Of a DNA stretch of 54,588 bases, positions 8,948-40,740 are shown one piece after another (position 1 is the stretch's first letter; every line of letters begins with the position of its first letter). The notes beneath the pieces were generated by a model. That model was given only the letters and a program-made list of their open reading frames with translations. It had not been told where the DNA came from and made no database searches. This stretch comes from Gammaproteobacteria bacterium (GTDB lineage Bacteria; Pseudomonadota; Gammaproteobacteria; SZUA-152), in the NCBI GenBank assembly GCA_050116575.1, contig JASFOJ010000014.1:1-54588 (forward strand), written 5' to 3'. The position numbers and the translations under genes were made by a program.

Positions 8948-9271
8948 ACTCCCGCTAACAATACCAAGCCCTTCAAACAGCGAACAGGAAAAGCCCCTCG
9001 AGAATTACACCTGATCCCTGTGTATTGCTTGTATCGCGGATAGCGCCCTTTCCGCCGGTTTCAACCCGCTACATGTTCACAACCCGGACACCCGGCTCGA
9101 TACTGTTATCCAGTCACGCCAATACTTGTATACCGGCGTATTTGCACTGTACAATAAGATTAGCCGCTGCTGGCAAACTGATCCAATCGATCGCTGCTCA
9201 AGAAGTCTTTTCCTGCGCCGCTGTTACGTTCACCCCAACGATGTTAACGATACCTCCCGGAGAACACCACG

Positions 9272-10264: not shown

Positions 10265-10302
10265 TTGATCTATCAATATACTTTAATATATTGAATTGCA
10301 GC

Positions 10303-10322
10303 GTGATCTATTTGTAGATCAC
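10303..10322. promoter_or_regulatory. Perfect 8-bp-arm palindrome GTGATCTA-TTTG-TAGATCAC (candidate protein-binding site)
   Basis: Seen directly in the sequence downstream of the lipoprotein gene; there is no T-run after it, so an operator or binding site is more likely than a terminator. Confidence 0.2.
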
Positions 10323-10392
10323 AATAGTGGCTCGCTGCATGTCCGTGCGATGCAATAGTCAATCAGCACAAAACACCAATCTCTGCCACTAA

Positions 10393-10510
10393 TTCCTTAA
10401 CCATACTTTTTGATACTAAAAAGGGCAATTTAAGTGTTAAATTTGCAACTCATTTAGGTGGTTTGTTTTTATAACCAACGAGTTATATTGGTCCGGGCCC
10501 GCGAATCACC
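10393..10510. repeat. Dispersed ~120-bp intergenic repeat, copy R1
   Basis: Shares cttaaacNcaNctttttNataccaaaa...atttaag...aaatttgNNttttaattttggNggtttNtttttataa...ggtccgNgcccNcgaNtc with copies at 25801, 42790 and 40420. Confidence 0.6.
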
Positions 10511-10544
10511 ACGGATCACCATGAATCAGTTCGGCCACTACGTT

Positions 10545-11087
10545 TCAACAACTCCGTAGACGATTCAAGCACTCAAGGATATCCGCTTTTAAAGGATGCG
10601 CGCTAATCCACTCACGAAATTGAATCAACCTTTCGTATTCACTATCACCCAGCTTTTCGCGCAACTGCTTTTCTTGTGTTGCCATCACACGTGAGTCACG
10701 AATGGCTTTTTGCCAAGGTTCGTTGAATATTTTGGTGAGACTGGCATCAAGATTGAGGGCTTGCACCAGAGCCCATTCACCGCCATCCACCCAGAACCGC
10801 CCGCAGTTGCCGCACAAATCAATTTTATTTGATGCCTTCTCACTCATTGAAAATTTTGTCATTAACTTTTGGCATTGAGGACATACCAAGGCTTGTTTGG
10901 AATCAGTAACCTCGATGGGTTGAATGCGATCGGATTCGTGTACTAATGATGGTTCCCGTTCCGACCAATGTCTATAGCTTAAAATTTCAATCAGACAGCC
11001 TTCACAGGACGGACAGCCAAAACCCGGTAATCCGTCGGCAAGTTTGGTGGGTACCAGCGAGCTATTCTTACAAGTGGGACATTTCAT
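10545..11087 (-). CDS. Zinc-ribbon domain protein (hypothetical)
   Basis: N-terminal CPTC...CPSCEGC and an internal CPQC...CGNC zinc-ribbon pair; operon-like with the M48 peptidase and LemA genes. Confidence 0.55.
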   Translation of the reverse strand: MKCPTCKNSSLVPTKLADGLPGFGCPSCEGCLIEILSYRHWSEREPSLVHESDRIQPIEVTDSKQALVCPQCQKLMTKFSMSEKASNKIDLCGNCGRFWVDGGEWALVQALNLDASLTKIFNEPWQKAIRDSRVMATQEKQLREKLGDSEYERLIQFREWISAHPLKADILECLNRLRSC

Positions 11088-29130: not shown

Positions 29131-29571
29131 TTACTCTTGACCGGGGTGTACTTTACGACGTTGCGCCTTACGTTCACTGTTCCGACGTTTTTGTTCCAGG
29201 CGGTCATTATTCTCCGCAAATGAACGTTTTCGTTTCAGCCGAGGCTTGCGGCGCTCTGCGGCTTTACAAATCAACTCGCACAGACGCTCGATCACTTCAC
29301 GCTTATTGCGTGCCTGTGACCGATGACGTCGTGCGGTAATAACAAGTTGGTAGTCGTTGTTGACCCGTGATCCGCCCAACTGAATCAAACGCTGTTGCAC
29401 GGTATACGGCAATGAGGGAGATTGAATAATATCAAAACGCAATTGGACAGCCGTCTGGTTCTTATTGACGTGCTGGCCACCCGGGCCGGATGCGGTCAGG
29501 GCCTTAAAGTTCAGCTCCTCATCGTCGATCACGATGGAATCGGTAACGTGTACGGGGTTTCCCATGTTCAT
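29131..29571 (-). CDS. arfB: Peptidyl-tRNA hydrolase ArfB (alternative ribosome rescue factor B)
   Basis: A GGQ motif (SGPGGQHVNKNQTAVQLRFDI) and a basic C-terminal tail; ~140-aa size typical of ArfB/YaeJ. Confidence 0.8.
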   Translation of the reverse strand: MNMGNPVHVTDSIVIDDEELNFKALTASGPGGQHVNKNQTAVQLRFDIIQSPSLPYTVQQRLIQLGGSRVNNDYQLVITARRHRSQARNKREVIERLCELICKAAERRKPRLKRKRSFAENNDRLEQKRRNSERKAQRRKVHPGQE

Positions 29572-29661
29572 GTCCTCGGTAAATTTTCATTGTTAACTCG
29601 GTTCTATATTCGAAATAGAGTGCATTCATCGCTGTTCTCCTTTTCTGTTTTGTTTCGTTAA

Positions 29662-30858
29662 TTAACCTTTGACACACACGATTTGTTTCAACGTGTGCAC
29701 CACGTCCACCAGATCGCTCTGGTTTTCCATGACCACATCGATATCCTTATAAGCGGCCGGTATTTCATCCACCACGGCGGTGTCCTTGCGGCATTCAATC
29801 CCTTGCGTTTGGGATTCCATGTCTTCGGCACTAAATTGCTTTCTCGCTTTGGTTCGGCTCATACGGCGGCCGGCGCCATGAGAGCAGGAACAAAACGACT
29901 GGGCATTGCCTTTACCGCGGACGATATAGGATTTCGCACCCATGCTACCGGGAATTATCCCTAACTCACCCTCTCCCGCTCGGATCGCCCCTTTACGGGT
30001 CACGAACACTTGGGCGTCAAAGTGATTCTCAATCGCCACGTAGTTGTGATGACAATTGATCGCTTCCTTGGTCACGCCAAAGTGGTTCAATTCCTTGCGC
30101 AGCATCTCAAAAATGAAGTGCATCATTTCCCGGCGGTTAACCATGGCATAGTCCTGCGCCCAGTGCACTGCATCAACGTAATCATCAAAATTCTGGGCGC
30201 CTTCCTCGAAATAGGCCAGGTCTTTGTCCGGCAAGTTCACGATATGCTGGCGCATATCTTTTTTCGCCAGATCGATAAAGTAACGACCGATGGCGTTCCC
30301 AATCCCACGGCTACCGGAATGCAACATCACCCACACATCCTGATTTTCGTCCAGACACAACTCGATGAAGTGGTTACCACCACCCAATGTCGCGATCTGG
30401 CGCACCCAGGTTTGATAGGGCTTCTTTTGTAAATTGGCAATCTTGGGGTGTTTGTCCAAAATCTTATCCAATCCCGGCGCCAGGCCACGAATAGTGGAAT
30501 TACGCGCCCTGTCGGTTTTATGCATGTCAAACCCCACGGGTATGGTTTTCTCGATCAGCGATCGAATACGGCGCAAGTTGTCCGGCAACTGCTCTGCCTT
30601 GATGGACAGGCGCACCGCGTTCATGCCGCAACCAATATCCACGCCCACCGCCGCAGGGATAACTACCCCTTTGGTAGGAATTACCGAGCCCACCGTGGCC
30701 CCAATGCCGGCATGCACGTCGGGCATCGCCGCGATATGGCTATGAATAAATGGCAATTGAGCAATGTTCGTCAATTGCTGCATGGCCTGGTGTTCCACAT
30801 CATCCGTATAAATTTTTACCGGCACCTTGCCTTTAGTAATGTTTCGTTTTATGGGCAT
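29662..30858 (-). CDS. rtcB: RNA-splicing ligase RtcB
   Basis: GNHFIELC...SCSHGAGR and metal-binding His/Cys motifs of RtcB; 398 aa. Confidence 0.93.
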   Translation of the reverse strand: MPIKRNITKGKVPVKIYTDDVEHQAMQQLTNIAQLPFIHSHIAAMPDVHAGIGATVGSVIPTKGVVIPAAVGVDIGCGMNAVRLSIKAEQLPDNLRRIRSLIEKTIPVGFDMHKTDRARNSTIRGLAPGLDKILDKHPKIANLQKKPYQTWVRQIATLGGGNHFIELCLDENQDVWVMLHSGSRGIGNAIGRYFIDLAKKDMRQHIVNLPDKDLAYFEEGAQNFDDYVDAVHWAQDYAMVNRREMMHFIFEMLRKELNHFGVTKEAINCHHNYVAIENHFDAQVFVTRKGAIRAGEGELGIIPGSMGAKSYIVRGKGNAQSFCSCSHGAGRRMSRTKARKQFSAEDMESQTQGIECRKDTAVVDEIPAAYKDIDVVMENQSDLVDVVHTLKQIVCVKG

Positions 30859-30896
30859 CGCCCTGTCCTCGTCAATCAGTTAATTATTGCAGGCAT

Positions 30897-30934
30897 AAAA
30901 AAACCCTGGATAACGCTGTCAGCCAGGGTTTATG
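30897..30934 (-). terminator. Rho-independent terminator (CCCTGG…CCAGGG hairpin, A-run / T-run on both sides) between rtcA and rtcB
   Basis: aaaaaaaCCCTGGataacgctgtcagCCAGGGtttatg, seen directly in the sequence. Confidence 0.5.
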
Positions 30935-31139
30935 AGACTCTACCATGGAAGACAACGTCGACATGCCTTCCACGCAAAGAGAAAGACATTGTTAATTTGT
31001 ATCGCGTTTTTGCCGTAACACTTGAGCTTTCTCCTTGAGTAACTGTTAAATTGAAATCGTGCCGCAATTGTAGCGCAGTGATTCAGAATGTCAACGACCG
31101 CTTGTCTGTTGAATTAGTACGCTCAAACCAGAGCAGTGT

Positions 31140-32174
31140 TTAACTTGCAACTTTTATACTAAAGCAATTTTCATTTAATTCGCTGAGCCGGTAATTGATA
31201 TCGAGAAACTGTTTCACCGTTCTGATATTGGTTTCAGTGTGTTGCGTTAGCTGACATGTCACAAACTCTCCGCCACCCGCCAAGCCCATGGGCAACAACA
31301 GCTGATCAGCGAGGTGCTCATCCACAGCAACGCCACTGTCAATGTAACGGCGTACTTCGTTTGCGACTTTTTTCGCAACGATTTCTGCTTTCACGCCTTT
31401 TTGACCATACCCTGTAAATACCTCGCTGATATTTTCACTTTCCACAGCAACTGAGACGACATTACCTGGCCCCAGCTCGGTTCCATAAGAGATAATGTCG
31501 AAATGATTGATCGATACGTTTAACTGACGCGCCAATACATTGATCTCGCGTTCAGCAATGTGTTTCGGTAATCCCACGATGTATACTGCTCCATGTATCG
31601 ACTGAATTTTCCCACGCTGCTTTAATGAGATAGCCTTTAATTTCCCGGTCGGTTGCACGTGCAACTCGAGACAACCACCGCCTTTTGGGAAAAATCCCGG
31701 CCGTATCAACGCTATTTCTATATCGCCCCCCATTTTATCCAGGATGGGTAAATACGCCTGTTGAATGAATTCAAATGGCGGGGCCATGGGATTGTGCGTG
31801 CCGCCTTCTATGGCGATCTTGCTGGGGCCATCGGCAAACAGCAAGGGCAGCATGATCGTCTGCAATACCAACGTTGTACTACCGGCGGTTCCGATCGAAA
31901 AGTGATACTCTCCAGGCTGTACATCATTCGGCTCGAAAACCAACTGTTGAGATCCCAAATGATCGCCTTCCACTCTGGCGTTACTGATACGCGCCGCTGC
32001 TCTAACCGCGGTTAAATGCCGGCGCAACAGCCCGGGCTTTTTCCGCCTGGCACGTATGTTTTCCATTCTGAATGGTTTTTTAAGGCAGACGGATATCGCT
32101 AATGATGAGCGCAATACCTGGCCACCCCCTTCGCCTTGTGAACCATCGATATAGACATGTCTTTGTTCGTTCAT
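31140..32174 (-). CDS. rtcA: RNA 3'-terminal phosphate cyclase RtcA
   Basis: N-terminal DGSQGEGGGQVLRSSLAISV... motif of RtcA; 344 aa. Confidence 0.9.
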   Translation of the reverse strand: MNEQRHVYIDGSQGEGGGQVLRSSLAISVCLKKPFRMENIRARRKKPGLLRRHLTAVRAAARISNARVEGDHLGSQQLVFEPNDVQPGEYHFSIGTAGSTTLVLQTIMLPLLFADGPSKIAIEGGTHNPMAPPFEFIQQAYLPILDKMGGDIEIALIRPGFFPKGGGCLELHVQPTGKLKAISLKQRGKIQSIHGAVYIVGLPKHIAEREINVLARQLNVSINHFDIISYGTELGPGNVVSVAVESENISEVFTGYGQKGVKAEIVAKKVANEVRRYIDSGVAVDEHLADQLLLPMGLAGGGEFVTCQLTQHTETNIRTVKQFLDINYRLSELNENCFSIKVAS

Positions 32175-32301
32175 TTCAATTTCTTTTGAATTTTCAGTAA
32201 GTAAATAGTCGCTTTCTACTGTTTAGCATAAATAGACGATATTTAAAAAGTCTCCCCCACTTCCCTTTCGTAAAGGGAAGCAATCGGGGAGAAACAATGG
32301 T

Positions 32302-33633
32302 TTAGTTAATTTTCACCAAACCATTCATCAGTCCTTCAAGGCCACCGAAAACAGACAAGTTACCGACTTTTTCAGTGACTTTTTCCAACGTTTCCAGCTC
32401 TTTCAAGCGTAGCGCCGTTGGGTTGTCTTCCATGACTTTGGCGGTGTTCAACATTGAACGTGTGGCCGCCGTTTCTTCGCGACGTCGAATGGAGTTCGCT
32501 TGTGCGGCTTTTTCAGCTTCGACCACTTGGGCCAGAATGGTTTTCATATCACCTGGCAGGATAATATCTTTCACACCTACATCAGCGATAGAAATACCGA
32601 CATCCGCGGTTTTGGCCTTGATGTGCGCCAACACGCTATCATCGATGACCGTTTTATCTTCAAGCAACGCATCCAACGTACGTGTACCCACGGCCGCGCG
32701 CAAACCAAATTGCAGTTCACGGCGCACGTAGTCGTTGACGTCAGCCAATTTTGACGTTGCCGCCATCACATCCGTGATGCGGTAGCTGCAAGACAAGTTG
32801 ATACGCAGGTTTACCTTGTCTTTGGTCAAAATTTCCTGACCGGCGACGTCCATGTCTTGTACACGAGTATCGAACAATTCAATACGGATATTACGATTGA
32901 ACTTCCAGTACGCGTGCAGACCTGGCGTCAATGTACCTGCCGTTGCACCATCCACGTACAGAACACCTACGTTGTATTCTGGCACATGACGGAAGTACAC
33001 GGCGTGGATCATGGAGTCACGCAACAGACCACGGTCGGCGAACACCAGTTCGGCTGCCAGCCGTGATTCGATGGCGAAGTCATCCGCGATATCGATTACT
33101 TTGGCCTCAACGTCCACCAGTCCTTTCCAGAACAGCGTGCGCGTTGATGGACCCAGCACGTAGGCCAGGCGGCGATTTTTGAAGATCAATGCCACTTGCG
33201 TTGCGTTCAATTCCACGATATCGAAGCGTTTTGCCACTTCGCCCGCAAATTGTTTGATCAACAGGTCGGTCAAGCGGTGCTCGAACTCCGGTACGCTCAG
33301 GTCAAAAACCTCCACGTCGATTTTACGCAGTGGATCCAGGAAGTGGTACGTACCCGCATCCAGGAAGCGTACAAAATCCCCGTTTTTAAACAGCAATCCG
33401 CGTTCATTTTTTTTCACTATAAATTTACGTACTACCAACATTGTCTTACTCCCATTGTCCCTGTTACCACTCACTGGTTGTTTCACGTTCACCGCCTTGT
33501 CAGCGCCTGAAATGCCCTTATTTGTTAAACTTGAGTTCACACGCACAGAAGCCGGTTTGCCTCGATGCCGCTGTGAAATAAGGGCGGCCGTTTCTCCGAT
33601 TGTGCGTTGTGTGTTCATCGTAGAGTCCTTCAC
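32302..33633 (-). CDS. SPFH/band-7 (stomatin/HflKC-like) domain protein
   Basis: SPFH core and a C-terminal coiled coil (EAEKAAQANSIRRREE...); the N-terminal start is uncertain. Confidence 0.75.
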   Translation of the reverse strand: MKDSTMNTQRTIGETAALISQRHRGKPASVRVNSSLTNKGISGADKAVNVKQPVSGNRDNGSKTMLVVRKFIVKKNERGLLFKNGDFVRFLDAGTYHFLDPLRKIDVEVFDLSVPEFEHRLTDLLIKQFAGEVAKRFDIVELNATQVALIFKNRRLAYVLGPSTRTLFWKGLVDVEAKVIDIADDFAIESRLAAELVFADRGLLRDSMIHAVYFRHVPEYNVGVLYVDGATAGTLTPGLHAYWKFNRNIRIELFDTRVQDMDVAGQEILTKDKVNLRINLSCSYRITDVMAATSKLADVNDYVRRELQFGLRAAVGTRTLDALLEDKTVIDDSVLAHIKAKTADVGISIADVGVKDIILPGDMKTILAQVVEAEKAAQANSIRRREETAATRSMLNTAKVMEDNPTALRLKELETLEKVTEKVGNLSVFGGLEGLMNGLVKIN

Positions 33634-34002
33634 GTTTTATATATCATACAATCTAGTTAGTGGTGTCACTTCCACACCATTGCAGCGGGTGATAATTTGC
33701 GAATCACCGGGTTTGATCGGAACGTGACGCCGCAGTATCCCGTAACCCGAATAACTTCAAGCTACTGTCAACGTTAGCGAAACGTTGCGAAAAAACCGGG
33801 TAAATCCGTACCCGTTATCACACAGGCCCAATGGTGCTGTGTGAGCAACAGCGGTTCGGCATCAACTGCCTGCCTATTTCGCTACTGTCACACCGGAAGT
33901 GACATCCGGTGGTTTGGTTTCCTCTCGTACTCCCAAGGTGTCTTTACCTAAGACCAAAGAGGGGACTCGAACCCCAGACCGTTAAAGGGTCTTTACCATA
34001 GT

Positions 34003-34075
34003 TGCTTAGACAGGATTTGAACCTGCTACCTCACGATTTTCCGTCGTGTGCTCTACCCAATGAGCTACAAAGCAC
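34003..34075 (-). pseudogene. tRNA-Phe-like gene (anticodon GAA but G33, acceptor-stem mismatch, no CCA)
   Basis: Cloverleaf derivable by eye: D-arm GCTCATTGGGTAGAGC, anticodon arm CACGA-CGGAAAA-TCGTG, T-arm GCAGGTTCAAATCCTGT. The defects suggest decay. Confidence 0.35.
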
Positions 34076-34342
34076 TGGTGTGAATAGCCTTCTCCATAAC
34101 GGTACACGTCAATCAATTTTCAGATCCAACGCGCCAGCCAGGTATACAGAACCATCGCCGCTGTTACAAGTAAGACGCATACTCACTCTGTAAAGGGTTT
34201 GTGTTTTTCTTTACACAATCCACTTAATTTCTTTAATGCTCCCTCCTTTTCAACCGAGGGTTGGGGGGGGTTATTACATTAATCCTAGAATCAAATCCCC
34301 CTTCATTCTCCATTTGTAAAACGGGAAGTACCTCACCATTAA

Positions 34343-34906
34343 TCAAATCCAACGACAGTGTTTCGTAAATCCGGCTTTCAAAAATTCCATTTGATCGGCC
34401 AGGATTCTGCCGCTGTTGCGCAATGCCAGATATTCGGCATGGTTCGGTGTATGCGGCAACGCCAACAACTGCAAATTGCATTCTTCCGGCAAACGATCGC
34501 CTTTGTAATGGTTGCATCGTTTGCAGGCTGCCACGACGTTGGTCCAGGTGTTTTTACCGTTCCGTGACCGTGGAATCACGTGATCACGGGTCAGCTGCTG
34601 AGCGTTAAACTCACGACCACAATACATACACAGATGTCGGTCACGTCGAAACAATTCCTGGTTGGTCAACGGTGGTACTGAGCGAACACGAATGGTTTTA
34701 TCCACGCCTTTCACTGCAACGATCGAATGGATATCCACAAACGAGCGTTGGCTGGTCACACGGTTGACACCACCGTGGAACCGAAAACGATGTTCGCCCG
34801 CCGTCCAACCGATACGCTCTTTGGCATACAACATCACGGCGTCTTGCCAATGCATCCAGCCCAACGGCTGACCCGCCATATCCAAACGCAAAATCAATGG
34901 AACCAC
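34343..34906 (-). CDS. HNH endonuclease (start GTG preceded by GAGGAG; ORF-track extension to 35050 runs into tRNA-Leu and is rejected)
   Basis: C-terminal CMYCGREFNAQQLTRDHVIPRSRNGKNTWTNVVAACKRCNHYKG HNH motif. Confidence 0.75.
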   Translation of the reverse strand: MVPLILRLDMAGQPLGWMHWQDAVMLYAKERIGWTAGEHRFRFHGGVNRVTSQRSFVDIHSIVAVKGVDKTIRVRSVPPLTNQELFRRDRHLCMYCGREFNAQQLTRDHVIPRSRNGKNTWTNVVAACKRCNHYKGDRLPEECNLQLLALPHTPNHAEYLALRNSGRILADQMEFLKAGFTKHCRWI

Positions 34907-34964
34907 GCTTTTCTCCTCATACTCTATCGATACCTTTAACAAGTTGGGAAGTACCATTATTAAT

Positions 34965-35050
34965 TGGTGTGCCCGGTCAGATTCGAACTGACATTGCCAT
35001 TTGGGCATAGGGTTTGAGCCTATTGTGTCGGCCAATTGCACCACGGGCAC
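34965..35050 (-). tRNA. tRNA-Leu(CAA)
   Basis: Acceptor GTGCCCG/CGGGCAC, anticodon arm ATAGG-CTCAAAC-CCTAT, long variable arm, T-arm with TTCGAAT, encoded CCA. Confidence 0.85.
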
Positions 35051-35248
35051 ATTTTGCGAATTGGCGGAAGAGATAGGGCGAGCAACGGGTTAAGGAGTCG
35101 CGAGCGCCAAGTCATGGATGACTTGGCTGGACTTTCGCGCGAAGCATGGATAGCGAAGCGCGAAAGCGAACCTATAAATCCCTACCAGGGATCCACTGGT
35201 TAGCAACCAGCTGCCTTGCCATTCAGCCACTCTTCCGACTTATCGATT

Positions 35249-35336
35249 TGGTGCGTGCGGAGGGATTGGAACCCTCATGCTCGAACGGAGCGGCGGATTT
35301 TAAATCCGCTGTGTTTGGCGGCTCCACCACGCACGC
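35249..35336 (-). tRNA. tRNA-Leu(UAA), D-loop lacks GG
   Basis: Acceptor GCGTGCG/CGCACGC, anticodon arm GCGGA-TTTAAAA-TCCGC, long variable arm, CCA end. Confidence 0.8.
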
Positions 35337-35356
35337 AGCACCTACATTTATGTATT

Positions 35357-35432
35357 TGGTTGTGACAATTGGAGTCGAACCAATATCTTCAAGGGTATGA
35401 GCCTTGCGCTTTGCCAGTTAAGCTATGTCACA
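35357..35432 (-). tRNA. tRNA-Met or Ile2 (anticodon CAU)
   Basis: Canonical cloverleaf; anticodon arm CAAGG-CTCATAC-CCTTG. Confidence 0.85.
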
Positions 35433-35445
35433 ACTTCTACAACAT

Positions 35446-35521
35446 TGGCACCCTTGGTAGGATTTAAACCCACATCTGTCGAGGTAGAAGCTCGATGCTT
35501 TGTTCATTAAGCTACAAGGGT
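35446..35521 (-). tRNA. tRNA-Arg(UCU)
   Basis: Anticodon arm TCGAG-CTTCTAC-CTCGA; canonical D and T arms. Confidence 0.85.
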
Positions 35522-35539
35522 GTAGTTAATCAATGTATT

Positions 35540-35615
35540 TGGTGCCCCCGGCAGGATTTTCGCCTGCAACCTACCGCTTAAAAGGCGATTGCTCTTGATG
35601 TTGAGCTACGAAGGC
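35540..35615 (-). tRNA. tRNA-Lys(UUU) with atypical T-loop CGAAAAT
   Basis: Anticodon arm ATCGC-CTTTTAA-GCGGT; acceptor with two G-U pairs; the T-loop lacks TTC. Confidence 0.75.
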
Positions 35616-35642
35616 AATATTTCTATTTTTAAAAGAATAAAT

Positions 35643-35717
35643 TGGAGGTGCGGGCCGGAATTGCACCGACGAAAAGTTGGTTTGCAACCAACTGCATTGC
35701 TACTCTGCCACCGCACC
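35643..35717 (-). tRNA. tRNA-Cys(GCA)
   Basis: Anticodon arm GTTGG-TTGCAAA-CCAAC, discriminator U, CCA. Confidence 0.8.
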
Positions 35718-35718
35718 G

Positions 35719-35865
35719 TGGCACCTCGAGCAGGAGTCGACAATTTTGTATGGAGCAAAATTGGTCGAACTTTAGTTCACCCGTAGGGCGCAAGCCATGG
35801 ACGGCTTGCGACAGCCCACACCCACTGTTTTGGAGGCAGTTGTTCTACCGTTAAACTATCGAGGC
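35719..35865 (-). ncRNA. Elongated tRNA-Trp(CCA)-like gene carrying the ~80-nt three-hairpin module (copy A) between 5' T-stem and T-loop
   Basis: The 5' half GCCTCGA-TA-GTTT-AACGGTA-GAAC-A-ACTGC-CTCCAAA-ACAGT closely parallels E. coli tRNA-Trp. It is followed by GTGGG, the module, GTCGACT-CCTGC, TCGAGGT-G-CCA. Confidence 0.55.
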
Positions 35866-35877
35866 ACAATCTTTTAT

Positions 35878-35952
35878 TGGTAGGGGATCCTGGACTTGAA
35901 CCAGAACTCTGAGCTTCAAAGACTCGTGTGCTGCCGATTACACCAATCCCCT
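35878..35952 (-). tRNA. tRNA-Gln(UUG)
   Basis: Anticodon loop CTTTGAA; acceptor AGGGGAT/ATCCCCT; CCA. Confidence 0.75.
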
Positions 35953-35967
35953 ATCGGTTATTAAACT

Positions 35968-36043
35968 TGGCACGCCCACCAGGACTTGAACCTGGATCTC
36001 TCACATTCGTAGTGTGAGGCTCTCGCCATTGAGCTATAGGCGT
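35968..36043 (-). tRNA. tRNA-Arg(ACG)
   Basis: Anticodon arm TCACA-CTACGAA-TGTGA; canonical. Confidence 0.85.
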
Positions 36044-36045
36044 TT

Positions 36046-36120
36046 TGGTTGACGTGGTCAGAATCGAACTGACAACCTTCTGTTTGTAAGACAGACGCTC
36101 AACCATTGAGCTACACGCCA
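36046..36120 (-). tRNA. tRNA-Val(UAC)
   Basis: Anticodon arm TCTGT-CTTACAA-ACAGA; canonical. Confidence 0.85.
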
Positions 36121-36138
36121 TTTGATTTGTATAAAACG

Positions 36139-36232
36139 TGGCGGAAGGTGGAGGGCACGATCCCCAAACGGTGTTTCACGTTCCACTGGTTTTCAAGACC
36201 AGGCCAACGCCCATCGCGTCAGGTTACCTTCC
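36139..36232 (-). tRNA. tRNA-Ser(UGA)-like, class II, degenerate T-arm
   Basis: Acceptor GGAAGGT/ACCTTCC, anticodon arm CTGGT-CTTGAAA-ACCAG, long variable arm; the T-loop is not canonical. Confidence 0.55.
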
Positions 36233-36301
36233 TTACCTGTTTTACATACGTTCGCAATATAGAATTGTTTTGTGATGTTGTTTGTTGCAGTCTTTTAGAT
36301 T

Positions 36302-36358
36302 ACGATTGACGACGCACTTTCACCAAAGCTGCTAGTTGTTTTTTGGATAATTTCATTG
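36302..36358 (-). CDS. Candidate 18-aa ORF MKLSKKQLAALVKVRRQS with strong SD (GAGGAGGG) inside the tRNA array
   Basis: RBS and ATG spacing seen in the sequence; no other support. Confidence 0.2.
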
Positions 36359-36375
36359 CATCGCCCTCCTCTATT

Positions 36376-36451
36376 TGGCACGCCCGGAAGGATTCAAACC
36401 TTCGACCCCTTGGTTCGAAGCCAAGTACTCTGTTCACTGAGCTACGGACGT
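36376..36451 (-). tRNA. tRNA-Arg(UCG)
   Basis: Anticodon arm CTTGG-CTTCGAA-CCAAG; canonical arms. Confidence 0.75.
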
Positions 36452-36465
36452 ATGTGGCATTAAAT

Positions 36466-36542
36466 TGGTAGCGCGGGTGAGATTCGAACTCACAACATCC
36501 AGTTTCTAAGACTGGCGCGTCTGCCCATTGCGCCACCGCGCC
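36466..36542 (-). tRNA. Class I tRNA with anticodon UAG (Leu codon CUA) but short variable arm
   Basis: Anticodon arm CCAGT-CTTAGAA-ACTGG, 5-nt variable loop, A73; bacterial tRNA-Leu is normally class II. Confidence 0.6.
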
Positions 36543-36561
36543 GCTATACGACAAATAAGTA

Positions 36562-36639
36562 TGGGGCGACCGACGAGGTTCGAACTCGTATCCTCTCGGT
36601 TCACAGCCGAGGACTTTAGCCGGTTAAGCTACGGCCGCC
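36562..36639 (-). tRNA. tRNA-His(GUG) with encoded G-1
   Basis: Extra 5' G pairing with C73; anticodon arm CTCGG-CTGTGAA-CCGAG. Confidence 0.85.
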
Positions 36640-36661
36640 ACTAATTAACTTACAAATAATT

Positions 36662-36754
36662 TGGAGCGGGTAATGAGACTTGCACTCATAACCTCAACGT
36701 TGGCAACGTTACGCTCTTCTCATTGCACCCTCCGGGCATAAAAGCTATACCCGC
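36662..36754 (-). tRNA. tRNA-Gly(GCC) with ~18-nt D-loop expansion (UUAUGCCCGGAGGGUGCAAU)
   Basis: Acceptor GCGGGTA/TACCCGC with U73; anticodon arm TAACG-TTGCCAA-CGTTG. Closely parallels E. coli tRNA-Gly(GCC) apart from the insertion and the TGCAAGT T-loop. Confidence 0.6.
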
Positions 36755-36761
36755 AGTAAAT

Positions 36762-36856
36762 TGGTCTGGACGACAGGCCGCTCTTGAGCATCCCTGCTCT
36801 GGCGGCACTTGTGCATCCAAGCACATCGGATTCGAACACGATCCATACAGTTTTGT
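36762..36856 (-). pseudogene. tRNA-Pro 3'-end relic (duplicate of the last ~20 nt of tRNA-Pro, T-arm missing)
   Basis: aattggtctggacgacagg nearly repeats aatttggtctgggcgacagg at 36858; the upstream part lacks T-arm and anticodon features. Confidence 0.4.
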
Positions 36857-36860
36857 AATT

Positions 36861-36939
36861 TGGTCTGGGCGACAGGATTTGAACCTATGGCCTCTCGGTT
36901 CCAAACCGAGTGCTCTGCACAGACTGAGCTACACCCAGA
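36861..36939 (-). tRNA. tRNA-Pro(UGG)
   Basis: Anticodon arm CTCGG-TTTGGAA-CCGAG; canonical. Confidence 0.85.
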
Positions 36940-37049
36940 AAGATCACCAACGATGCACGTTGGCGGCACAGCTGTTGTCCTGCAGTTGTGCTCCCACACC
37001 TTTTACGGCGGTGGTATACCGGCGACAGGGAGTGTCGCGCTCCTGCTAT

Positions 37050-37197
37050 TGGTTGCCCTATCAGATTCGACAATTCTGACGGGATCAGAATTGGCCGCGC
37101 TTTAGCGCGCCCGGCAGGGTACGGGCCATGGATGGCCCGTAACAGCTGATCACCGCACGATTATCAGTCGTGTGCTCTGCCACTGAGCTAAAGGGCA
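37050..37197 (-). ncRNA. Elongated tRNA-Ile(GAU)-like gene carrying module copy C
   Basis: The 5' half TGCCCTT-TA-GCTC-AGTGGCA-GAGC-A-CACGA-CTGATAA-TCGTG is canonical. T-stem ATCAG then the module then TTGTCGAAT-CTGAT then AGGGCA-A-CCA. Confidence 0.5.
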
Positions 37198-37365
37198 TTG
37201 GCGAACCGGACGGGGTTATTCCGCACATCCATGTGCTCCACCCTTTGGGCCGTCGCTTCGCGACGTTCAAATTTGCTCCCGGCAAATTTGTCGAACCCGC
37301 AATGTCATCTCGACACCAGGTTGAAGGCCTGGCCGCTTTGTCCACTTTGCATACCGGTTCATCGT

Positions 37366-37442
37366 TGGCGACCATGACCGGCAATGATCCGGCATCTTCC
37401 ACCTTGACAGGGTGGCGCTTTCCCAAGTTAAGCTACATGGCC
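37366..37442 (-). tRNA. tRNA-Asp(GUC) with atypical T-loop
   Basis: Anticodon arm CCACC-CTGTCAA-GGTGG; acceptor GGCCATG/CATGGTC; T-loop ATCATTG. Confidence 0.7.
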
Positions 37443-37449
37443 TTTAAAT

Positions 37450-37521
37450 TGGTGGAGTGATTCGGAATCGAACCGAACCCGATCGCTTGCAAGGCGTTCA
37501 GTGCGACCCATCGCCCACCCC
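37450..37521 (-). ncRNA. Short tRNA-like gene (anticodon UGC-like) with mini D-arm (GCGA-TGG-TCGC)
   Basis: Acceptor GGGGTGG/TCACTCC with G-U pairs, T-arm TTCGG-TTCGATT-CCGAA, CCA; the D-loop is only 3 nt. Confidence 0.4.
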
Positions 37522-37543
37522 GTATGAAACAAGTGCAATTAGT

Positions 37544-37629
37544 TGGCTGAGAAGGTCGGACTCGAACCGACATTGAGTTCTCACTCACGGGTTAACAGCC
37601 CGCTGCATTACCTGGTCTGCCACTTCTCA
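37544..37629 (-). tRNA. Class II (long variable arm) tRNA with anticodon GUU (Asn codons)
   Basis: Acceptor TGAGAAG/CTTCTCA, D-stem GCA/TGC, anticodon arm GCGGG-CTGTTAA-CCCGT, 15-nt variable arm GAGTGAGAACTCAAT, T-arm GTCGG-TTCGAGT-CCGAC. Confidence 0.6.
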
Positions 37630-37637
37630 TTATCATT

Positions 37638-37714
37638 TGGTGCAGCGAAATGGATTCGAACCACTATCGCCCTGGGCTTCAACCAGGCGCTCTACCCATT
37701 GGAGCTATCGCTGC
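37638..37714 (-). tRNA. tRNA-Phe(GAA)
   Basis: Anticodon arm CCTGG-TTGAAGC-CCAGG; canonical D and T arms. Confidence 0.85.
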
Positions 37715-37720
37715 GAAATT

Positions 37721-37982
37721 TGGTGGAGCACGGAAGGCCGCTCTCGCAGATCCCTCGGCTATGGCTCCTGCTTCGCCCTACCTCCTGCATCCATGCAGTC
37801 GTGTGCTTCGCGGCACCTGTGCATCCATGCACAATGGAATCGACAATTTTGTCCGGAACAAAATTGGTCGAACTTTAGTTCGCCCGTAGGGCGCGAGCCA
37901 GGGATGGCTCGCGACAGCCTCTTGCCCGAAGGGCCTGGGCTACAACCAGGCCGTGGACCATCCACGCTTATTGACATGCTCC
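37721..37982 (-). ncRNA. Long tRNA-like RNA with Tyr-type anticodon arm (GUA), mini D-arm, module copy B and two GCATGGATGCA hairpins before a CCA end
   Basis: GGCCTGG-TTGTAGC-CCAGGCC anticodon arm, GTGGA-TGG-TCCAC mini D-arm, the module at 37840-37919, 3' CCGTGCTCCACCA; boundaries are uncertain. Confidence 0.4.
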
Positions 37983-37994
37983 AATACGCTTTTG

Positions 37995-38160
37995 TGGTTT
38001 ACTAAGGTCGGTTTCACCCCACCGACTCCCGAATCCGGTTTTTCAACCGTCGAACCGACTTTACTTACCCTTGCACACCCAGGCAGAAATGAATGGAGTA
38101 ACAACGGGTTTCGGTTACAACCTGGTGCTGCCACACCACTTAGTAAACCCAAAAACATAC
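37995..38160 (-). ncRNA. Structured RNA closed by 11-bp terminal helix (GGTTTACTAAG / CTTAGTAAACC) with CCA after the helix; tRNA-like acceptor
   Basis: Inverted repeat between 37996-38007 and 38136-38147, seen directly; the internal fold is unresolved. Confidence 0.3.
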
Positions 38161-38175
38161 GCACTAAAAAACAAT

Positions 38176-38269
38176 TGGTGCCGAAAGTAGGACTTGCACC
38201 CACAACCGTCTGCTTACAAGGCAGCTGCTCTGCTAAATTGCACCCAAAGGGCATAAAAGCTATTTCGGC
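38176..38269 (-). tRNA. tRNA-Thr(UGU)-like with the same D-loop expansion as the Gly(GCC) gene
   Basis: Acceptor GCCGAAA/TTTCGGC, D-loop TTATGCCCTTTGGGTGCAATTTAGCA, anticodon arm GCTGC-CTTGTAA-GCAGA, T-loop TGCAAGT. Confidence 0.55.
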
Positions 38270-38271
38270 AC

Positions 38272-38366
38272 TGGTTGTCCCGGCAGGACTTGAACCTACA
38301 ACTCGCGCTAATCTGGCGCTTTCCCAAGGTATAAGCTTGGCGTTTTACCAATTAAACTACGGGACA
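38272..38366 (-). tRNA. Class II tRNA with anticodon UAU (Ile AUA codon)
   Basis: Acceptor TGTCCCG/CGGGACA, D-arm GTTT-AATTGGTA-AAAC, anticodon arm CCAAG-CTTATAC-CTTGG, ~24-nt variable arm with GCGC stem. Confidence 0.55.
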
Positions 38367-38385
38367 CCTAATCATGTGCAGCCTC

Positions 38386-38559
38386 TTATGCCAGTTCTCT
38401 GGCCAACGCAAACGCTGCATCAAAGTTTCGATGTATTCGGTTCTGTATTGCGCCGTTACGTAAAAACCATCGCACGTTAGGCTGGCTGAAGGATTTCCTA
38501 GCCGCCGGCAGATTCATGGTTTTAATGAGGCGCTCATAGCGTTGCGCTTTCGTGTACAT
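38386..38559 (-). CDS. Candidate 57-aa ORF (MYTKAQRYERLIKTMNLPAARKSF...) with strong SD GGAGGTGA
   Basis: RBS and ATG at the edge of the tRNA array; no homology recognised. Confidence 0.3.
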   Translation of the reverse strand: MYTKAQRYERLIKTMNLPAARKSFSQPNVRWFLRNGAIQNRIHRNFDAAFALARELA

Positions 38560-38606
38560 AACACTCACCTCCTTTTCAATACGACCTGTTCCACATCAGC
38601 AAAAAT

Positions 38607-38755
38607 TGGTGCGGGCAGACAGAGTCGACAATTCTGACAGGATCAGAAATGGTCGCACTTTAGCGCGCCCGATAGGGTGCGGGCCATGGATGGCCCGCAA
38701 CAACTGTCATCTTCTGCTTGGAAAGCAGGTGTTCTACCATTGGACTATGCGCGCA
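38607..38755 (-). ncRNA. Elongated tRNA-Gly(UCC)-like gene carrying module copy D
   Basis: 5' TGCGCGC-ATA-GTCC-AATGGTA-GAAC-A-CCTGC-TTTCCAA-GCAGA, then the module, then TTGTCGACTCTGTC-TGCCCGC-A-CCA. Confidence 0.5.
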
Positions 38756-39278
38756 CATCAGGATGTCATGTTGCCTGTCCGATCTATCACCTTAGACAGG
38801 CAACACATCACCTAGTCATCACCATAAGTGATGACAAAAATGGTACTTCCCAACTTGTTAAAGAACATCGCTAAGTCAGCTTGTGCTTAACGGGGGCACA
38901 AAAAAAGCCCCGGCATTTATCGCGTTTGCGATACCTACCGAGGCTTTATGGTTCTTTCCTGCGGAAGGTGTCGCTTGTGGCCTCACCTTCCGCGCGCGAT
39001 TTCGCGAAAAGTTACCTCATACCGGCCTCATCATTACTGAGCTGATCATGCTTAAACTGTACGGGCACAATCCCCGTGGTTTGCTTACCCCACAAACACA
39101 CAGCATCACTTTTTGACGGGCATATATACCCCATGGTCAGTCGCCGATAACGGCTGACCGATGTCTGAGTGTGTTGTATGGATAATGGTTTCATGTCGCT
39201 ACGCTCGTTTATGTCTATCTGCTAATTTACTTTTGTTAGATTTTATCTCGTAACCTTTTTCTCAATTCATTCATGCAA

Positions 39279-39690: not shown

Positions 39691-40284
39691 ATGAAAACGC
39701 CCGACAAAAACCCCACCGCGTTAAAGATCGGCAACCGTATCAAACAAGCACGGAAAATGGCGGGCTTTGAGACAGCCGCGCAACTCAATAAACACCTAAC
39801 CGATTGGTCTGCCTCGCGATTAGGCAACTATGAAGCGGGTATATCGACCCCCTCGCCCGATGATATCGACCGCATCGCGCAATTGACCGATGCCTCACCT
39901 TGCTGGATTACCTTTGGTATCGGACCGATTCGCGCCTCCATGCGCGATGTCCAGGCAATCCGTCATCAAAACCTGGTATATCTTGTCGACCAGGCGAAAA
40001 AATCCAAGAAAATGAAGCCCCTGATCACCACACTCGGAATATCCCAAAAGAAACTGGACGAACACCTCGACAATCCTTTCATGAATATCACAGACCGGAT
40101 CGCCAGACGATGCGAGAAATTCCTGAAAAAATCGCATGGCTGGATGGATGAACAACACGTGGAATCCGACCCTGTGTGTGCGGCTTTCCCAGAGGACATG
40201 CGAGAAGTCATGGAGATTTATTCCAACCTCGAACCTGAAGAGAGGGACAGGTTTCTACGGATAGCCAGGGCATTTACTGAATAG
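39691..40284 (+). CDS. XRE-family helix-turn-helix transcriptional regulator with unknown C-terminal domain
   Basis: N-terminal IGNRIKQARKMAGFETAAQLNKHL...SRLGNYEAG Cro/C1-type HTH. Confidence 0.7.
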   Translation: MKTPDKNPTALKIGNRIKQARKMAGFETAAQLNKHLTDWSASRLGNYEAGISTPSPDDIDRIAQLTDASPCWITFGIGPIRASMRDVQAIRHQNLVYLVDQAKKSKKMKPLITTLGISQKKLDEHLDNPFMNITDRIARRCEKFLKKSHGWMDEQHVESDPVCAAFPEDMREVMEIYSNLEPEERDRFLRIARAFTE

Positions 40285-40612: not shown

Positions 40613-40740
40613 TAATTGGGCAAGTAGCTCAGCGGTAGAGCACCGGGCTTATTTACTCTTCGCTTCTCGCACCAAGAGTTCCTAATTGATCTAACCCGGA
40701 GGTCGCAGGTTCGACTCCTGCCTTCCCTGCCCGTTTTTCG
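40613..40740 (+). ncRNA. tRNA-like gene interrupted by ~46-nt insertion in the anticodon loop; no encoded CCA
   Basis: GGGCAAG-TA-GCTC-AGCGGTA-GAGC-A-CCGGG-CTT[insert with ACTCTT/AAGAGT hairpin]CTAA-CCCGG-AGGTC-GCAGG-TTCGACT-CCTGC-CTTCCCT; the 3' end is followed by a GCCCG-TTTTT-CGGGGC hairpin. Confidence 0.45.

Follow-up and report, generated by a model that had tools for sequence, protein, structure and literature searches.

A probable small mobile DNA element, related to RtT, in the T-loops of tRNA genes of a long array

At least five tRNA genes in a long gammaproteobacterial tRNA array are interrupted, within the sequence encoding the T-loop, by copies of a module that is probably a mobile DNA element, non-autonomous and some 73-75 bp in length, and a relative of RtT. 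Compared with orthologous sites that are empty, each copy is a discrete insertion; the copies share a junction rule and occur in both orientations. The stretch of DNA analysed (the window) is 54,588 nucleotides long. Its array comprises some 30 tRNA genes that share a strand and has an embedded HNH gene; RtcB is adjacent and an HTH regulator lies upstream. Downstream of the array, at a distance of 1-5 kb, the same strand encodes RtcA, RtcB and PrfH. Within the tRNA-Pro unit of the array, an 18-nt stretch duplicates the 3' end of the neighbour. The element copies and their host genes are listed below, where the limits of copies A to D are derived from repeat coordinates and from alignment breaks against an empty orthologous array (L129, a metagenome contig).

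35741..35813 (73 nt), minus strand: element copy A, T-loop of tRNA-Trp(CCA), in tRNA sense, repeat D4
37844..37916 (73 nt), minus strand: element copy B, T-loop of tRNA-Tyr(GUA), in tRNA sense, repeat D4
37071..37144 (74 nt), minus strand: element copy C, T-loop of tRNA-Ile(GAU), in tRNA sense, repeat D3
38629..38702 (74 nt), minus strand: element copy D, T-loop of tRNA-Gly(UCC), in tRNA sense, repeat D3
37216..37290 (75 nt), plus strand: element copy E, T-loop of tRNA-Glu(UUC), inverted relative to its host
35719..35865, minus strand: tRNA-Trp(CCA), interrupted by A; called as Trp-CCA by ARAGORN once the element is deleted
37721..37982, minus strand: tRNA-Tyr(GUA), interrupted by B and a second insert; from pairwise alignment with the intact tRNA-Tyr of L129
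37050..37197, minus strand: tRNA-Ile(GAU), interrupted by C; ARAGORN call after deletion and L129 alignment
38607..38754, minus strand: tRNA-Gly(UCC), interrupted by D; ARAGORN call after deletion and L129 alignment
37199..37360, minus strand: tRNA-Glu(UUC), interrupted by E; L129 alignment

The orthologous array is syntenic with that of the window, with the same tRNAs in the same order and an HNH gene that is 81% identical; all 24 tRNAs of the L129 array are normal by ARAGORN, and no element was found in it with model R1. Blastn blocks between the two arrays end exactly at the element limits, with breaks at 37071-37145 (C), 38629-38701 (D) and 37738-37917 (tRNA-Tyr, whose L129 orthologue is intact at 89 nt). 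At the Trp site, the empty sequence GTGGG-TTCGACT-CCTGC is matched by the filled GTGGG-C[...]TCGACT-CCTGC, and the Glu and Ile sites are empty in L129 as GCGGG-TTCGAGT-CCCGT and ATCAG-TTCAAAT-CTGAT, respectively. Because the L129 array is uninterrupted and element-free in the same order, the modules in the window are DNA insertions. In the empty Ile orthologue, the T-loop reads TTCAAAT instead of TTCGAAT, so either the target diverged after insertion or TCGA was brought by the element.

The original prediction named T-loop-interrupted genes for Trp-CCA, Tyr-GUA, Ile-GAU and Gly-UCC as hosts, and these identities hold. Once the element is deleted in silico, ARAGORN recognizes the tRNAs for Trp, Ile and Gly. 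Removal of D from tRNA-Gly leaves GACAG-TTCGACT-CTGTC, with a canonical UUCGACU loop. The exons of tRNA-Trp match those positions in L129 at all but 1 of 74, the acceptor 3' strand of tRNA-Ile(GAU) lacks one G relative to L129, and tRNA-Tyr holds two different inserts, namely B and an unrelated one of about 100 nt at 37736-37835. Exons of interrupted tRNAs diverge from L129 by 7.7%, versus 14.7% for uninterrupted ones (per-gene p=0.48), and thus give no positive sign that the interrupted tRNAs are dead. In the orientation of A to D, the insert separates U54 from U55; position 54 reads C in three copies, so simple excision would not restore UUCGA. We infer that the interrupted genes no longer yield working tRNAs. 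The base at the left junction is C in A, B and C, T in D and G in E, and in view of this variability the insertion event may not be plain cut-and-paste.

The minus-strand copies pair up as A/B and C/D, with 89% identity inside each pair; the pairs correspond to repeat families D4 and D3. Within each pair, pairwise alignments show that the likeness ends at the T-stems and that the host tRNAs are unrelated. Model R1 scores A, B, C and D at 105.8, 103.3, 101.3 and 106 bits, and copy E, on the plus strand, at 27.1 bits (E ~6e-5). The pattern CAANTNTGNTCCNNNCANANTTGTCGA has 5 matches in the window versus 0 expected from shuffles. The three-hairpin order first proposed for the four copies is borne out, with a mini-hairpin as a fourth: H3 with the 6-nt loop RTCCMT, the CCCT..GGG mini-hairpin, H2 with the loop TAAA, H1 with the 7-nt loop NTCCNNN, then TCGA. 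Some details required revision. The coordinates first given for A, B and C were accurate to within a few nucleotides, while those for D were shifted by about 10 nt, and H3 of D is GCGGGCC/GGCCCGC, not ACGGGCC/GGCCCGU. A fifth copy does lie near 37255-37280 as proposed, but it is a complete element at 37216-37290, inverted in tRNA-Glu, and not hairpin 1 alone. This copy E is 78-79% identical to units in Shewanella and Gilliamella, and its orientation relative to the tRNA is the canonical one of RtT.

The helices are conserved. In copies A to D, 97.7% of proposed helix positions are paired, a share that falls to 34-45% once the 3' partners are slid, and both sides change in 6 intra-element pairs, which confirms the compensatory changes originally described. 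Across 63 copies from other genomes, 88% of helix cells are paired versus 32-52% when slid, and 26 of 32 pairs show two-sided changes, figures that carry the limit that this alignment was fitted to the model. The original prediction took such covariation as the mark of a selected RNA, a reading that is not supported: the helices fold equally well on either DNA strand (as single-stranded DNA), and in the family helices all four Watson-Crick pair types are present while G.U pairs are few. Wobble-asymmetry tests on the element gave results in conflict with each other.

The same family is found at no fewer than 120 loci in Gammaproteobacteria, with 63 and 28 matches to it by model R1. Most copies are units with a tRNA 3'-end fragment, downstream of intact tRNA or tmRNA genes; 97 have such a gene no more than 700 nt away, and of these 87 run antisense to it and 10 share its sense. 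Further complete tRNAs are interrupted by the family in L037, L040, L046, L081 and, twice, L083. Copies per genome appear to be few (1-3 per locus), unlike typical MITEs or REPs. The own-strand junction is always T^TCG(A), without target duplication, although this universality is partly circular across the 138 copies, which were defined by a search pattern that demanded TCGA and the H1 sequence.

Some copies sit inside ERIC repeats or other non-tRNA hairpins. ERIC inserts of about 70 bp were reportedly noticed in the 1990s (Sharp 1997; Cromie et al. 1997; Wilson and Sharp 2006). In a Klebsiella locus (L004), the flanks without the element form one contiguous repeat of about 127 bp, which is present in 5426 of 5426 E. 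coli genomes at a median of 9 copies; ERIC is a 127-bp repeat (PMC2229807). Alignment A4 sets the empty ERIC site, ...GCGT|TCGCTCACC, beside two independently filled copies, and the internal inserts of about 70 bp in the Klebsiella and E. coli plasmid ERIC/IRU copies are this element, at one fixed internal site next to TCG. ERIC serves only as host here, and is itself a MITE flanked by TIRs and TA.

By architecture and partial sequence, the family is a diverged relative of E. coli RtT, the tyrT/proK-distal repeats. Like RtT, it is placed in tRNA T-loop sequence, with TTCGA before it and AAT, the T-stem 3' strand, the acceptor 3' strand and CCA after it; it has the same hairpin series, including the GCCC-NNN-GGGC mini-hairpin; and it usually follows an intact tRNA, in many cases as tandem units. 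Units in this layout read GGATGAGAA, T-stem hairpin, TTCGA, hairpins, AAT, T-stem 3', acceptor 3' and CCA. The core of H2 and GCCC/GGGC is 79% identical over 29 nt, and an intermediate unit from Serratia has matches in 5338 E. coli genomes to regions labelled 'RtT sRNA'. However, the H1 and H3 sequences of the window element are not those of RtT, and A to D are oppositely oriented and lie within complete tRNA genes rather than 3'-end fragments. The Rfam model RF00391 scores copy E at 20.1 bits over 37199-37328(-) and other family units at 26-36 bits, versus a gathering score of 45, and gives no match to A to D; E. coli RtT, for its part, reaches about 10 bits with model R1. With scores below gathering, the element is a diverged relative and not a member by score. 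The original prediction had left room for a known intron, MITE or RNA family: the module in fact behaves as a small insertion element, and its link to a known family holds for RtT by architecture and partial sequence, not by RF00391 score (20-36, below 45).

The element comprises four successive hairpins (H3, the CCC/GGG mini-hairpin, H2 and H1) without terminal inverted repeats, and is inserted without target-site duplication at a fixed position by TCG(A), on its own strand as ...T^[Y-TGTY...H3...H2...H1...ATTG]^TCGA. Its commonest site is the DNA encoding the tRNA T-loop (G53-T-T-C-G-A), where the palindromic TCGA makes either orientation relative to the tRNA possible. In the window, insertion has affected five tRNA genes of a long accessory array, four times in tRNA sense and once antisense. 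Mobilization is presumably in trans, by a hairpin- or single-strand-specific enzyme, for which a Y1/HUH transposase of the IS200/IS605-RAYT kind is the best analogy. IS200/IS605-derived MITEs and REP/RAYT systems (Y1 HUH single-strand transposition) likewise lack target-site duplications and terminal inverted repeats, have hairpins at or near both ends and insert beside a short fixed sequence (TCGA here) whose strand sets the orientation. It is an analogy only; the hairpins of our element directly abut its ends, and its copy number is low. No candidate transposase or nuclease for the element was identified; the HNH gene also lies within the element-free L129 array, so it cannot be sufficient for the element.

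It is important to consider that the modules might instead act as RNA. In the form that we regard as very unlikely, they are introns cut from the pre-tRNA by an endonuclease or by self-cleavage, leaving 2',3'-cyclic phosphate and 5'-OH ends, and the neighbouring RtcB, aided by RtcA, ligates the exons; in that case the interrupted genes would supply tRNAs conditionally, on activation by stress. The proximity of RtcA, RtcB and PrfH, the intact host cloverleaves without excess exon divergence, and the loop regained on removing 38629-38702 would all fit. So would the published long tRNA arrays, which resemble ours (one-strand arrays of about 30 tRNAs with HNH, RtcB and an upstream HTH regulator) and are, in the available part of that source, described as co-regulated with rtcB; the same part notes that such arrays contain insertions, duplications and pseudogenes, and T-loop elements are not described there (PMC8421152). 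However, RtcB also adjoins the element-free L129 array, so its linkage is independent of the inserts. Copy E is inverted, most relatives are antisense to the tRNA, and the same element occurs in ERIC repeats and other non-tRNA hairpins, which, with the empty orthologous sites, leaves unsupported the earlier idea of an RNA-level module peculiar to tRNA-like genes. In copies A to C, excision would produce C54 or a loop of 6 nt, the predicted fold lacks a bulge-helix-bulge and has its 3' junction inside a helix, and no splicing endonuclease turned up in the scanned island proteins. A group I intron had already been doubted, rightly: no Rfam family reaches threshold, nothing appears at E<=5 over A to D, and ribozyme or intron family matches are absent even at E<=10. 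Archaeal non-canonical tRNA introns, which are cut by EndA at the BHB and joined by RtcB, are also small inserts outside the anticodon, including in the T-arm, and here too RtcB is encoded nearby; but our element has no BHB motif and a bacterial host, its orientation relative to the tRNA is not fixed, and it is found outside tRNAs and missing from the orthologous array.

Somewhat less improbable, yet still unlikely, is that the element is retained and extends the T-arm of stable chimeric tRNA-like RNAs serving as regulators or decoys, e.g., for tRNA-targeting toxins or tRNA-binding proteins, by analogy to RtT RNA, which arises by processing of the tyrT transcript. In E. coli, RtT carries the annotation of a processed sRNA, the Aggregatibacter sRNA family RF02902 comes near its threshold on two units, helix covariation is strong, 7-nt N-U-C-C-N-N-N loops are conserved on H1 and H3 (alignment A2), host exons show no decay, and an insert in canonical orientation follows A58 and so keeps the UUCGA pentaloop intact. 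Yet the orthologous array does without any of the inserts, both orientations and non-tRNA hosts occur, and the scarcity of G.U pairs and equal folding of both strands fit a DNA palindrome at least equally well. We also give little credence to a single ancient insert, not itself mobile, that was passed from T-loop to T-loop through gene conversion, or through template switching during replication between conserved GGTTCGAATCC segments of neighbouring tRNA genes. The hosts are indeed clustered in one array with a common T-loop sequence, and the duplicate in the tRNA-Pro unit resembles a recombination or slippage product. However, shared flank homology is only about 2+5 nt, with T-stems differing between hosts; the same junction recurs in ERIC repeats, tmRNA-linked units and distant genera; and each of the two subfamilies occupies unrelated tRNAs. 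The module is probably a small mobile insertion rather than a novel type of tRNA intron.

RtT-type repeats have long been known in E. coli yet remain unexplained, and the element offers an origin for them: classical RtT-type units may be relics or by-products of such insertions.

The original prediction described a structured repeat in four tRNA-like genes whose stems change in a compensatory manner, and this is borne out. Copies A-D of the element, a hairpin-forming insert of ~73-75 nt, align in register, with 89% identity within the pair A/B and 89% within C/D, and each contains the hairpins H3, a CCC/GGG mini-hairpin, H2 and H1 in this order. The helices are 97.7% paired on the four copies, compared with 34-45% when the partners are slid, and in six intra-element pairs both partners differ between copies. 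A short helix, together with the T-stem of the host, closes the run of hairpins in three of the four minimum-energy folds. When the element is removed in silico, ARAGORN calls tRNA-Trp(CCA), tRNA-Ile(GAU) and tRNA-Gly(UCC), the hosts that had been proposed; tRNA-Tyr needs a second deletion as well.

A covariance model built from copies A-D (R1) was used to search the whole window with filters off. The hosts of all five copies in the window are complete tRNA genes:

Copy A, 35741-35813, in tRNA-Trp(CCA)
Copy B, 37844-37916, in tRNA-Tyr
Copy C, 37071-37144, in tRNA-Ile(GAU)
Copy D, 38629-38702, in tRNA-Gly(UCC)
Copy E, 37208-37303 (limits of the R1 match), strand opposite to A-D, in tRNA-Glu(UUC); R1 score 27 bits, E about 6e-5

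Copy E is inverted relative to its host; its parts follow the order seen in the other copies, and it likewise has ATCCAT and NTCCNNN loops. This region had been taken for a divergent fifth copy of hairpin 1; related sequence is indeed present, but it belongs to a complete inverted element and is not a lone hairpin. The covariance-model search that had been proposed found this fifth copy in the window and further copies in other genomes; the inverted copy is a departure from the original view. TCGA abuts the H1 end in every window copy.

A metagenome search with the HNH protein encoded in the array led to a contig (L129; 81% identity) that carries this array with its tRNAs in unchanged order. 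ARAGORN finds each of the 24 array tRNAs of L129 to be normal, and R1 finds no element in this contig. The blastn blocks between the window and L129 end exactly at the element limits, and the arrays are elsewhere 77-85% identical. The insertion points compare as follows:

Trp: L129 GTGGG-TTCGACT-CCTGC; window GTGGG-C[73 nt]TCGACT-CCTGC; position 54 is the only exon difference
Gly: L129 GACAG-TTCGAGC-CTGTC; window GACAG-T[74 nt]TCGACT-CTGTC
Ile: L129 ATCAG-TTCAAAT-CTGAT; window ATCAG-C[74 nt]TCGAAT-CTGAT
Glu: L129 GCGGG-TTCGAGT-CCCGT; window GCGGG-TTCGA[75 nt, inverted]AC-CCCGT

Klebsiella contains a copy of the element that has no surrounding tRNA. Taking the element out joins its flanks into an uninterrupted repeat of ~127 bp, which is present in every E. 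coli genome with a median of 9 copies. This 127-bp repeat, the host of the Klebsiella element, is ERIC (PMC2229807). In an alignment of filled and empty ERIC copies, the empty copy reads ...GCGT/TCGCTCACC, and two filled copies have ~76 bp inserted exactly at the slash, where no target duplication is seen. R1 scores 39 bits on the second filled copy, which is on an E. coli plasmid. In the E. coli plasmid pH222-1 (locus L127), the element-filled ERIC adjoins ybtA, the yersiniabactin regulator gene; this filled ERIC could serve as a polymorphic marker of element activity in E. coli. Empty and filled sites in both tRNA and ERIC hosts prove that the copies are insertions. Searches of the hosts against plasmids and phages with blastn gave matches confined to tRNA 5' halves.

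On the element's own strand, the junction lies between T and TCG(A), which in tRNA numbering corresponds to T54^T55 in copies A-D and, in the canonical (RtT) orientation, to the point following A58. The first base of the element, at the junction, varies between C, T and G. A classical MITE, which has terminal inverted repeats (TIR) and a target-site duplication (TSD), was rejected because the ends TGTYGC... and ...AATTG are not inverted repeats and the filled/empty alignments contain no duplication. The absence of both, the end hairpins, the fixed short sequence beside the insert and an orientation set by the strand of the adjoining sequence are points of likeness to IS200/IS605-derived and REP/RAYT elements, although TCGA as the fixed sequence was itself part of the search pattern in the wider sample. 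By this analogy, the element may move in a similar way. No Y1 (HUH) or RAYT domain was found in the subset of large ORFs scanned in the 54-kb window. The HNH protein, considered as a candidate for mobilising the element, cannot suffice for this: the empty L129 array encodes it too, and 78 of 80 loci with HNH homologues have neither tRNA array nor element.

A pattern consisting of H1 and TCGA matches at least 120 loci in species-representative genomes, almost all in Gammaproteobacteria; because TCGA and the H1 sequence are built into this pattern, the TCGA junction in the wider sample is partly presupposed. Cultured carriers, as pattern matches, include Klebsiella, Serratia, Yersinia, Gilliamella, Orbus, Shewanella, Pseudoalteromonas, Rhodanobacter, Dyella and Luteibacter, and R1 confirmed 63 and 28 copies. 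A tRNA or tmRNA gene lies within 700 nt of 97 copies (window included) out of the 138 pattern copies. Among these 97, 87 are antisense to the nearest tRNA and 10 are on the same strand. The typical unit reads, in the tRNA sense, GGATGAGAA, a T-stem hairpin, TTCGA, the element, AAT, the T-stem 3' strand, the acceptor 3' strand, CCA and a terminator; tandem units are common, with a spacing of 160-190 bp. Complete tRNA genes interrupted by the family also occur elsewhere (loci L037, L040, L046, L081 and L083), usually with an intact copy alongside. An RtT-like unit is found downstream of tmRNA (ssrA) in a Shewanella genome (units: L073 1282-1416, L018 2195-2296). The Rfam family RF02902 (Aggregatibacter sRNA 22) scores 31-33 bits on these units, near its threshold of 39.8, and this sRNA family may be the same element.

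The layout of the typical unit is that of the E. coli tyrT 178-bp repeats, which give rtT RNA. RtT repeats have reportedly been described in E. coli from the late 1970s on, in work by Egan and Landy in 1978 and by Bosl and Kersten in 1991, and we know of no agreed origin or function for them. The Serratia unit matches regions annotated "RtT sRNA / tRNA-Pro" in 5338 of 5426 E. coli genomes, and the Rfam RtT model (RF00391) scores 101 bits on that E. coli locus, as a control. The consensus of this model comprises TTCGA, three hairpins including GCCC-NNN-GGGC, and then AAUCC...CCA. Copy E is collinear with the RtT layout of TTCGA, structured insert, AAT, T-stem 3', acceptor 3' and CCA, and copies A-D are the same element flipped. 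With the RtT model, copy E scores 20.1 bits and related units 25.9-36.5 bits (gathering score 45), and copies A-D have no match at E<=10. Given scores below the gathering score, we regard the window element as a diverged relative of RtT, not as a member of RF00391 by score. The Glu unit of the window is 78-79% identical over 82-88 nt to units of Shewanella and Gilliamella; in a pairwise comparison with E. coli RtT, only H2 and the GCCC/GGGC core are common. An RtT unit repeats only the 3' end of a tRNA and lies downstream of an intact tRNA, as do 77 of the 97 copies near a tRNA or tmRNA gene, which are on its opposite strand and downstream of it, whereas the window copies are in complete tRNA genes. 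The window element is a flipped, intragenic variant of the RtT repeat family, and it behaves as an insertion element that targets the T-loop.

Covariation had also been taken as the signature of a selected RNA. In an alignment of 63 copies, which was fitted to the model and in which the H1 sequence is constrained by the search pattern, pairing in the helices is 88%, and for 26 of 32 pairs both partners vary. The pairs include each of the four Watson-Crick types, but G.U accounts for only ~1% of cells in H3, H2 and the mini-hairpin. Folded as single-stranded DNA, both strands form the same hairpins with equal stability (z -4 to -6). Two tests of wobble asymmetry point in opposite directions: the model-fitted alignment has G.U versus A.C at 23 vs 5, favouring the element strand, while a strand-symmetric fold with only Watson-Crick pairs gives 5 vs 11, with the complement more stable in 52 copies versus 31. 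The covariation therefore proves that the hairpin structure is selected, and does not imply selection specifically as RNA.

The proposal that the module is an RNA or intron-type part of tRNA-like genes is not supported, in view of the inverted copy, the ERIC hosts and the empty sites in L129. No known RNA family, ribozyme or intron was found over copies A-D at gathering scores or E<=10. The original prediction was right that this is not a group I intron, which would have a catalytic core (P3-P9) of >200 nt, a position in the anticodon loop and a match to Rfam Intron_gpI; the element has 73-75 nt, lies in the T-loop and has no such match. An intron of the bulge-helix-bulge (BHB) type would have two 3-nt bulges around a 4-bp helix, where the minimum-energy folds have bulges of 2 nt and 1 nt, a 3-bp helix and a 3' junction inside a helix. 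Such an intron would also have a fixed orientation and be confined to tRNA and rRNA, in conflict with copy E, the 87 of 97 antisense relatives and the ERIC copies. The feature is real and well structured, and it is not a new intron.

The genomic setting comprises the following:

34001-38760, minus strand: tRNA gene array, all on one strand; 18 genes by ARAGORN, to which Rfam adds several weak or partial matches
34343-34957: HNH gene embedded in the array
29131-33633, minus strand, downstream of the array: repair cluster encoding SPFH, RtcA, RtcB, a PrfH-type RF-1 protein and a PcfJ-like protein

ARAGORN passed over eight array genes; tRNA finders silently overlook genes interrupted by the element. 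The window belongs to a bacterial chromosome and encodes FeoB, iPGM, flotillin and a PIF1-type helicase. A phage origin of the array was ruled out, as megablast against phages gave no match and the flanking genes FeoB, iPGM and flotillin are chromosomal. Exact copies of the island proteins were found only in environmental metagenomes. Linkage and co-regulation of long tRNA arrays with rtcB are documented (PMC8421152), and the window has that layout.

One could suppose that the interrupted genes are conditional tRNAs, in which a structure-specific nuclease removes the element at the RNA level in either orientation and RtcA/RtcB rejoins the halves. If true, the inserts would be tRNA introns of a bacterium, located in the T-loop, spliced by proteins and able to spread as DNA too. 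The linkage to RtcB speaks for it. However, SPFH and RtcB follow the element-free array of L129 as well (at 8173-10764, RtcB directly after SPFH and without RtcA), so that the ligase accompanies the array rather than the inserts. This finding, the inverted copy, the ERIC hosts and the absence of both a BHB and a ribozyme match make splicing very improbable. Position 54 reads C in copies A, B and C, so simple excision would restore no UUCGA there; in copy D it would. Compared with L129, one G is missing from the acceptor 3' strand of the tRNA-Ile gene. We infer that the host genes of A-D are dead, because the insert separates U54 from U55. Exon divergence from L129 has no excess in interrupted genes (7.7%, versus 14.7% in uninterrupted ones; per-gene p=0.48). 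A count of stem defects as pseudogene decay looked significant, but the Trp and Gly defects are common to the intact L129 orthologues.

Further inserts distinguish this array from that of L129. Directly after tRNA-Pro, the window has gained ~99 nt, comprising a TTCGAATCC piece, a different two-hairpin element and an 18-nt duplicate of the tRNA-Pro 3' end; we take this gain to be a newly formed RtT-type unit. The inserts, among them the one after tRNA-Pro just described, are:

37736-37835 in tRNA-Tyr and 36760-36858 after tRNA-Pro: type II insert, unrelated to the main element, at both places without counterpart in L129
35080-35166 in tRNA-Ser(GCU): third type, a T-loop insert of ~87 nt with two hairpins that have ATCCATG loops
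38241-38257 in tRNA-Thr(UGU) and 36726-36742 in tRNA-Gly(GCC): 17-nt mini-hairpins TTTATGCCCnnnGGGTG in the D-loops, both without L129 counterpart

The type II insert has hairpins GTGCATGGATGCAC / GAGCAGGGATGCTC and a GCCGC...GCGGC stem, and its CAUGGAU loops form the complement of the main element's AUCCAUG loops. The tRNA-Ser(GCU) orthologue in L129 is intact (ATAGG-TTCGAAT-CCTAT). The D-loop mini-hairpins resemble the GCCC-NNN-GGGTG core of the main element.

Several other observations concern the array and its surroundings. TCGA is present in every interrupted T-loop, and 10 of the 18 uninterrupted array tRNAs have a T-loop without it (e.g., TTCAAGT, ATCATTG, TGCAATT, TTTAAAT). Several array tRNAs are structurally odd; tRNA-Ile(UAU), for example, has a long variable arm, and a tRNA-Ala is 68 nt long. 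The two copies of a 24-nt inverted repeat, AATGGTACTTCCCAACTTGTTAAAG, bracket the array, at 38841-38865 (+) upstream of the first tRNA and at 34934-34958 (-) at the start of the HNH gene. An HTH regulator is encoded next to the array, upstream of it (39691-40284), and these repeats may be its operator sites. Between tRNA-Thr and tRNA-Tyr, GGTTTACTAAG/CTTAGTAAACC close a region of ~150 nt (about 37990-38150, minus strand) that contains GGTTCGA; the region is inside a block that aligns to L129 at ~82% identity, and an Rfam search of it gave no match. Between tRNA-Gly and tRNA-Ile(UAU), at 38386-38559 (-), an ORF of 57 codons has a strong Shine-Dalgarno sequence, AAAGGAGGTGA. At 36143-36232 (-), in a 250-nt gap of the array and adjoining an 18-codon ORF, there is a weak tRNA-Sec-like Rfam match (33 bits; gathering score 47). 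A lone tRNA at 40618-40729 (+; Rfam 57 bits, 112 nt) has ~40 nt inserted in its anticodon loop, lacks an encoded CCA and contains a C4:C69 mismatch; it may represent a gene with an intron or the attachment site of the island.

In the openly searchable literature, outside which older subscription papers lie, we found no description of small T-loop-targeting elements and nothing relevant on RtT, inserts in ERIC or T-loop MITEs. The window and its element-free orthologue present RtT relatives as fresh, precisely bounded insertions in complete tRNAs, in both orientations, and the family is also found inside ERIC. These findings suggest that a small element homing to TTCGA in T-loop DNA has left RtT-type units as its footprints; the presence of exactly the last ~19 nt of a tRNA in the units would then be explained. 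The cultured Serratia, Klebsiella, Rhodanobacter and Dyella that have copies are a tractable system in which to seek the mobilising enzyme.
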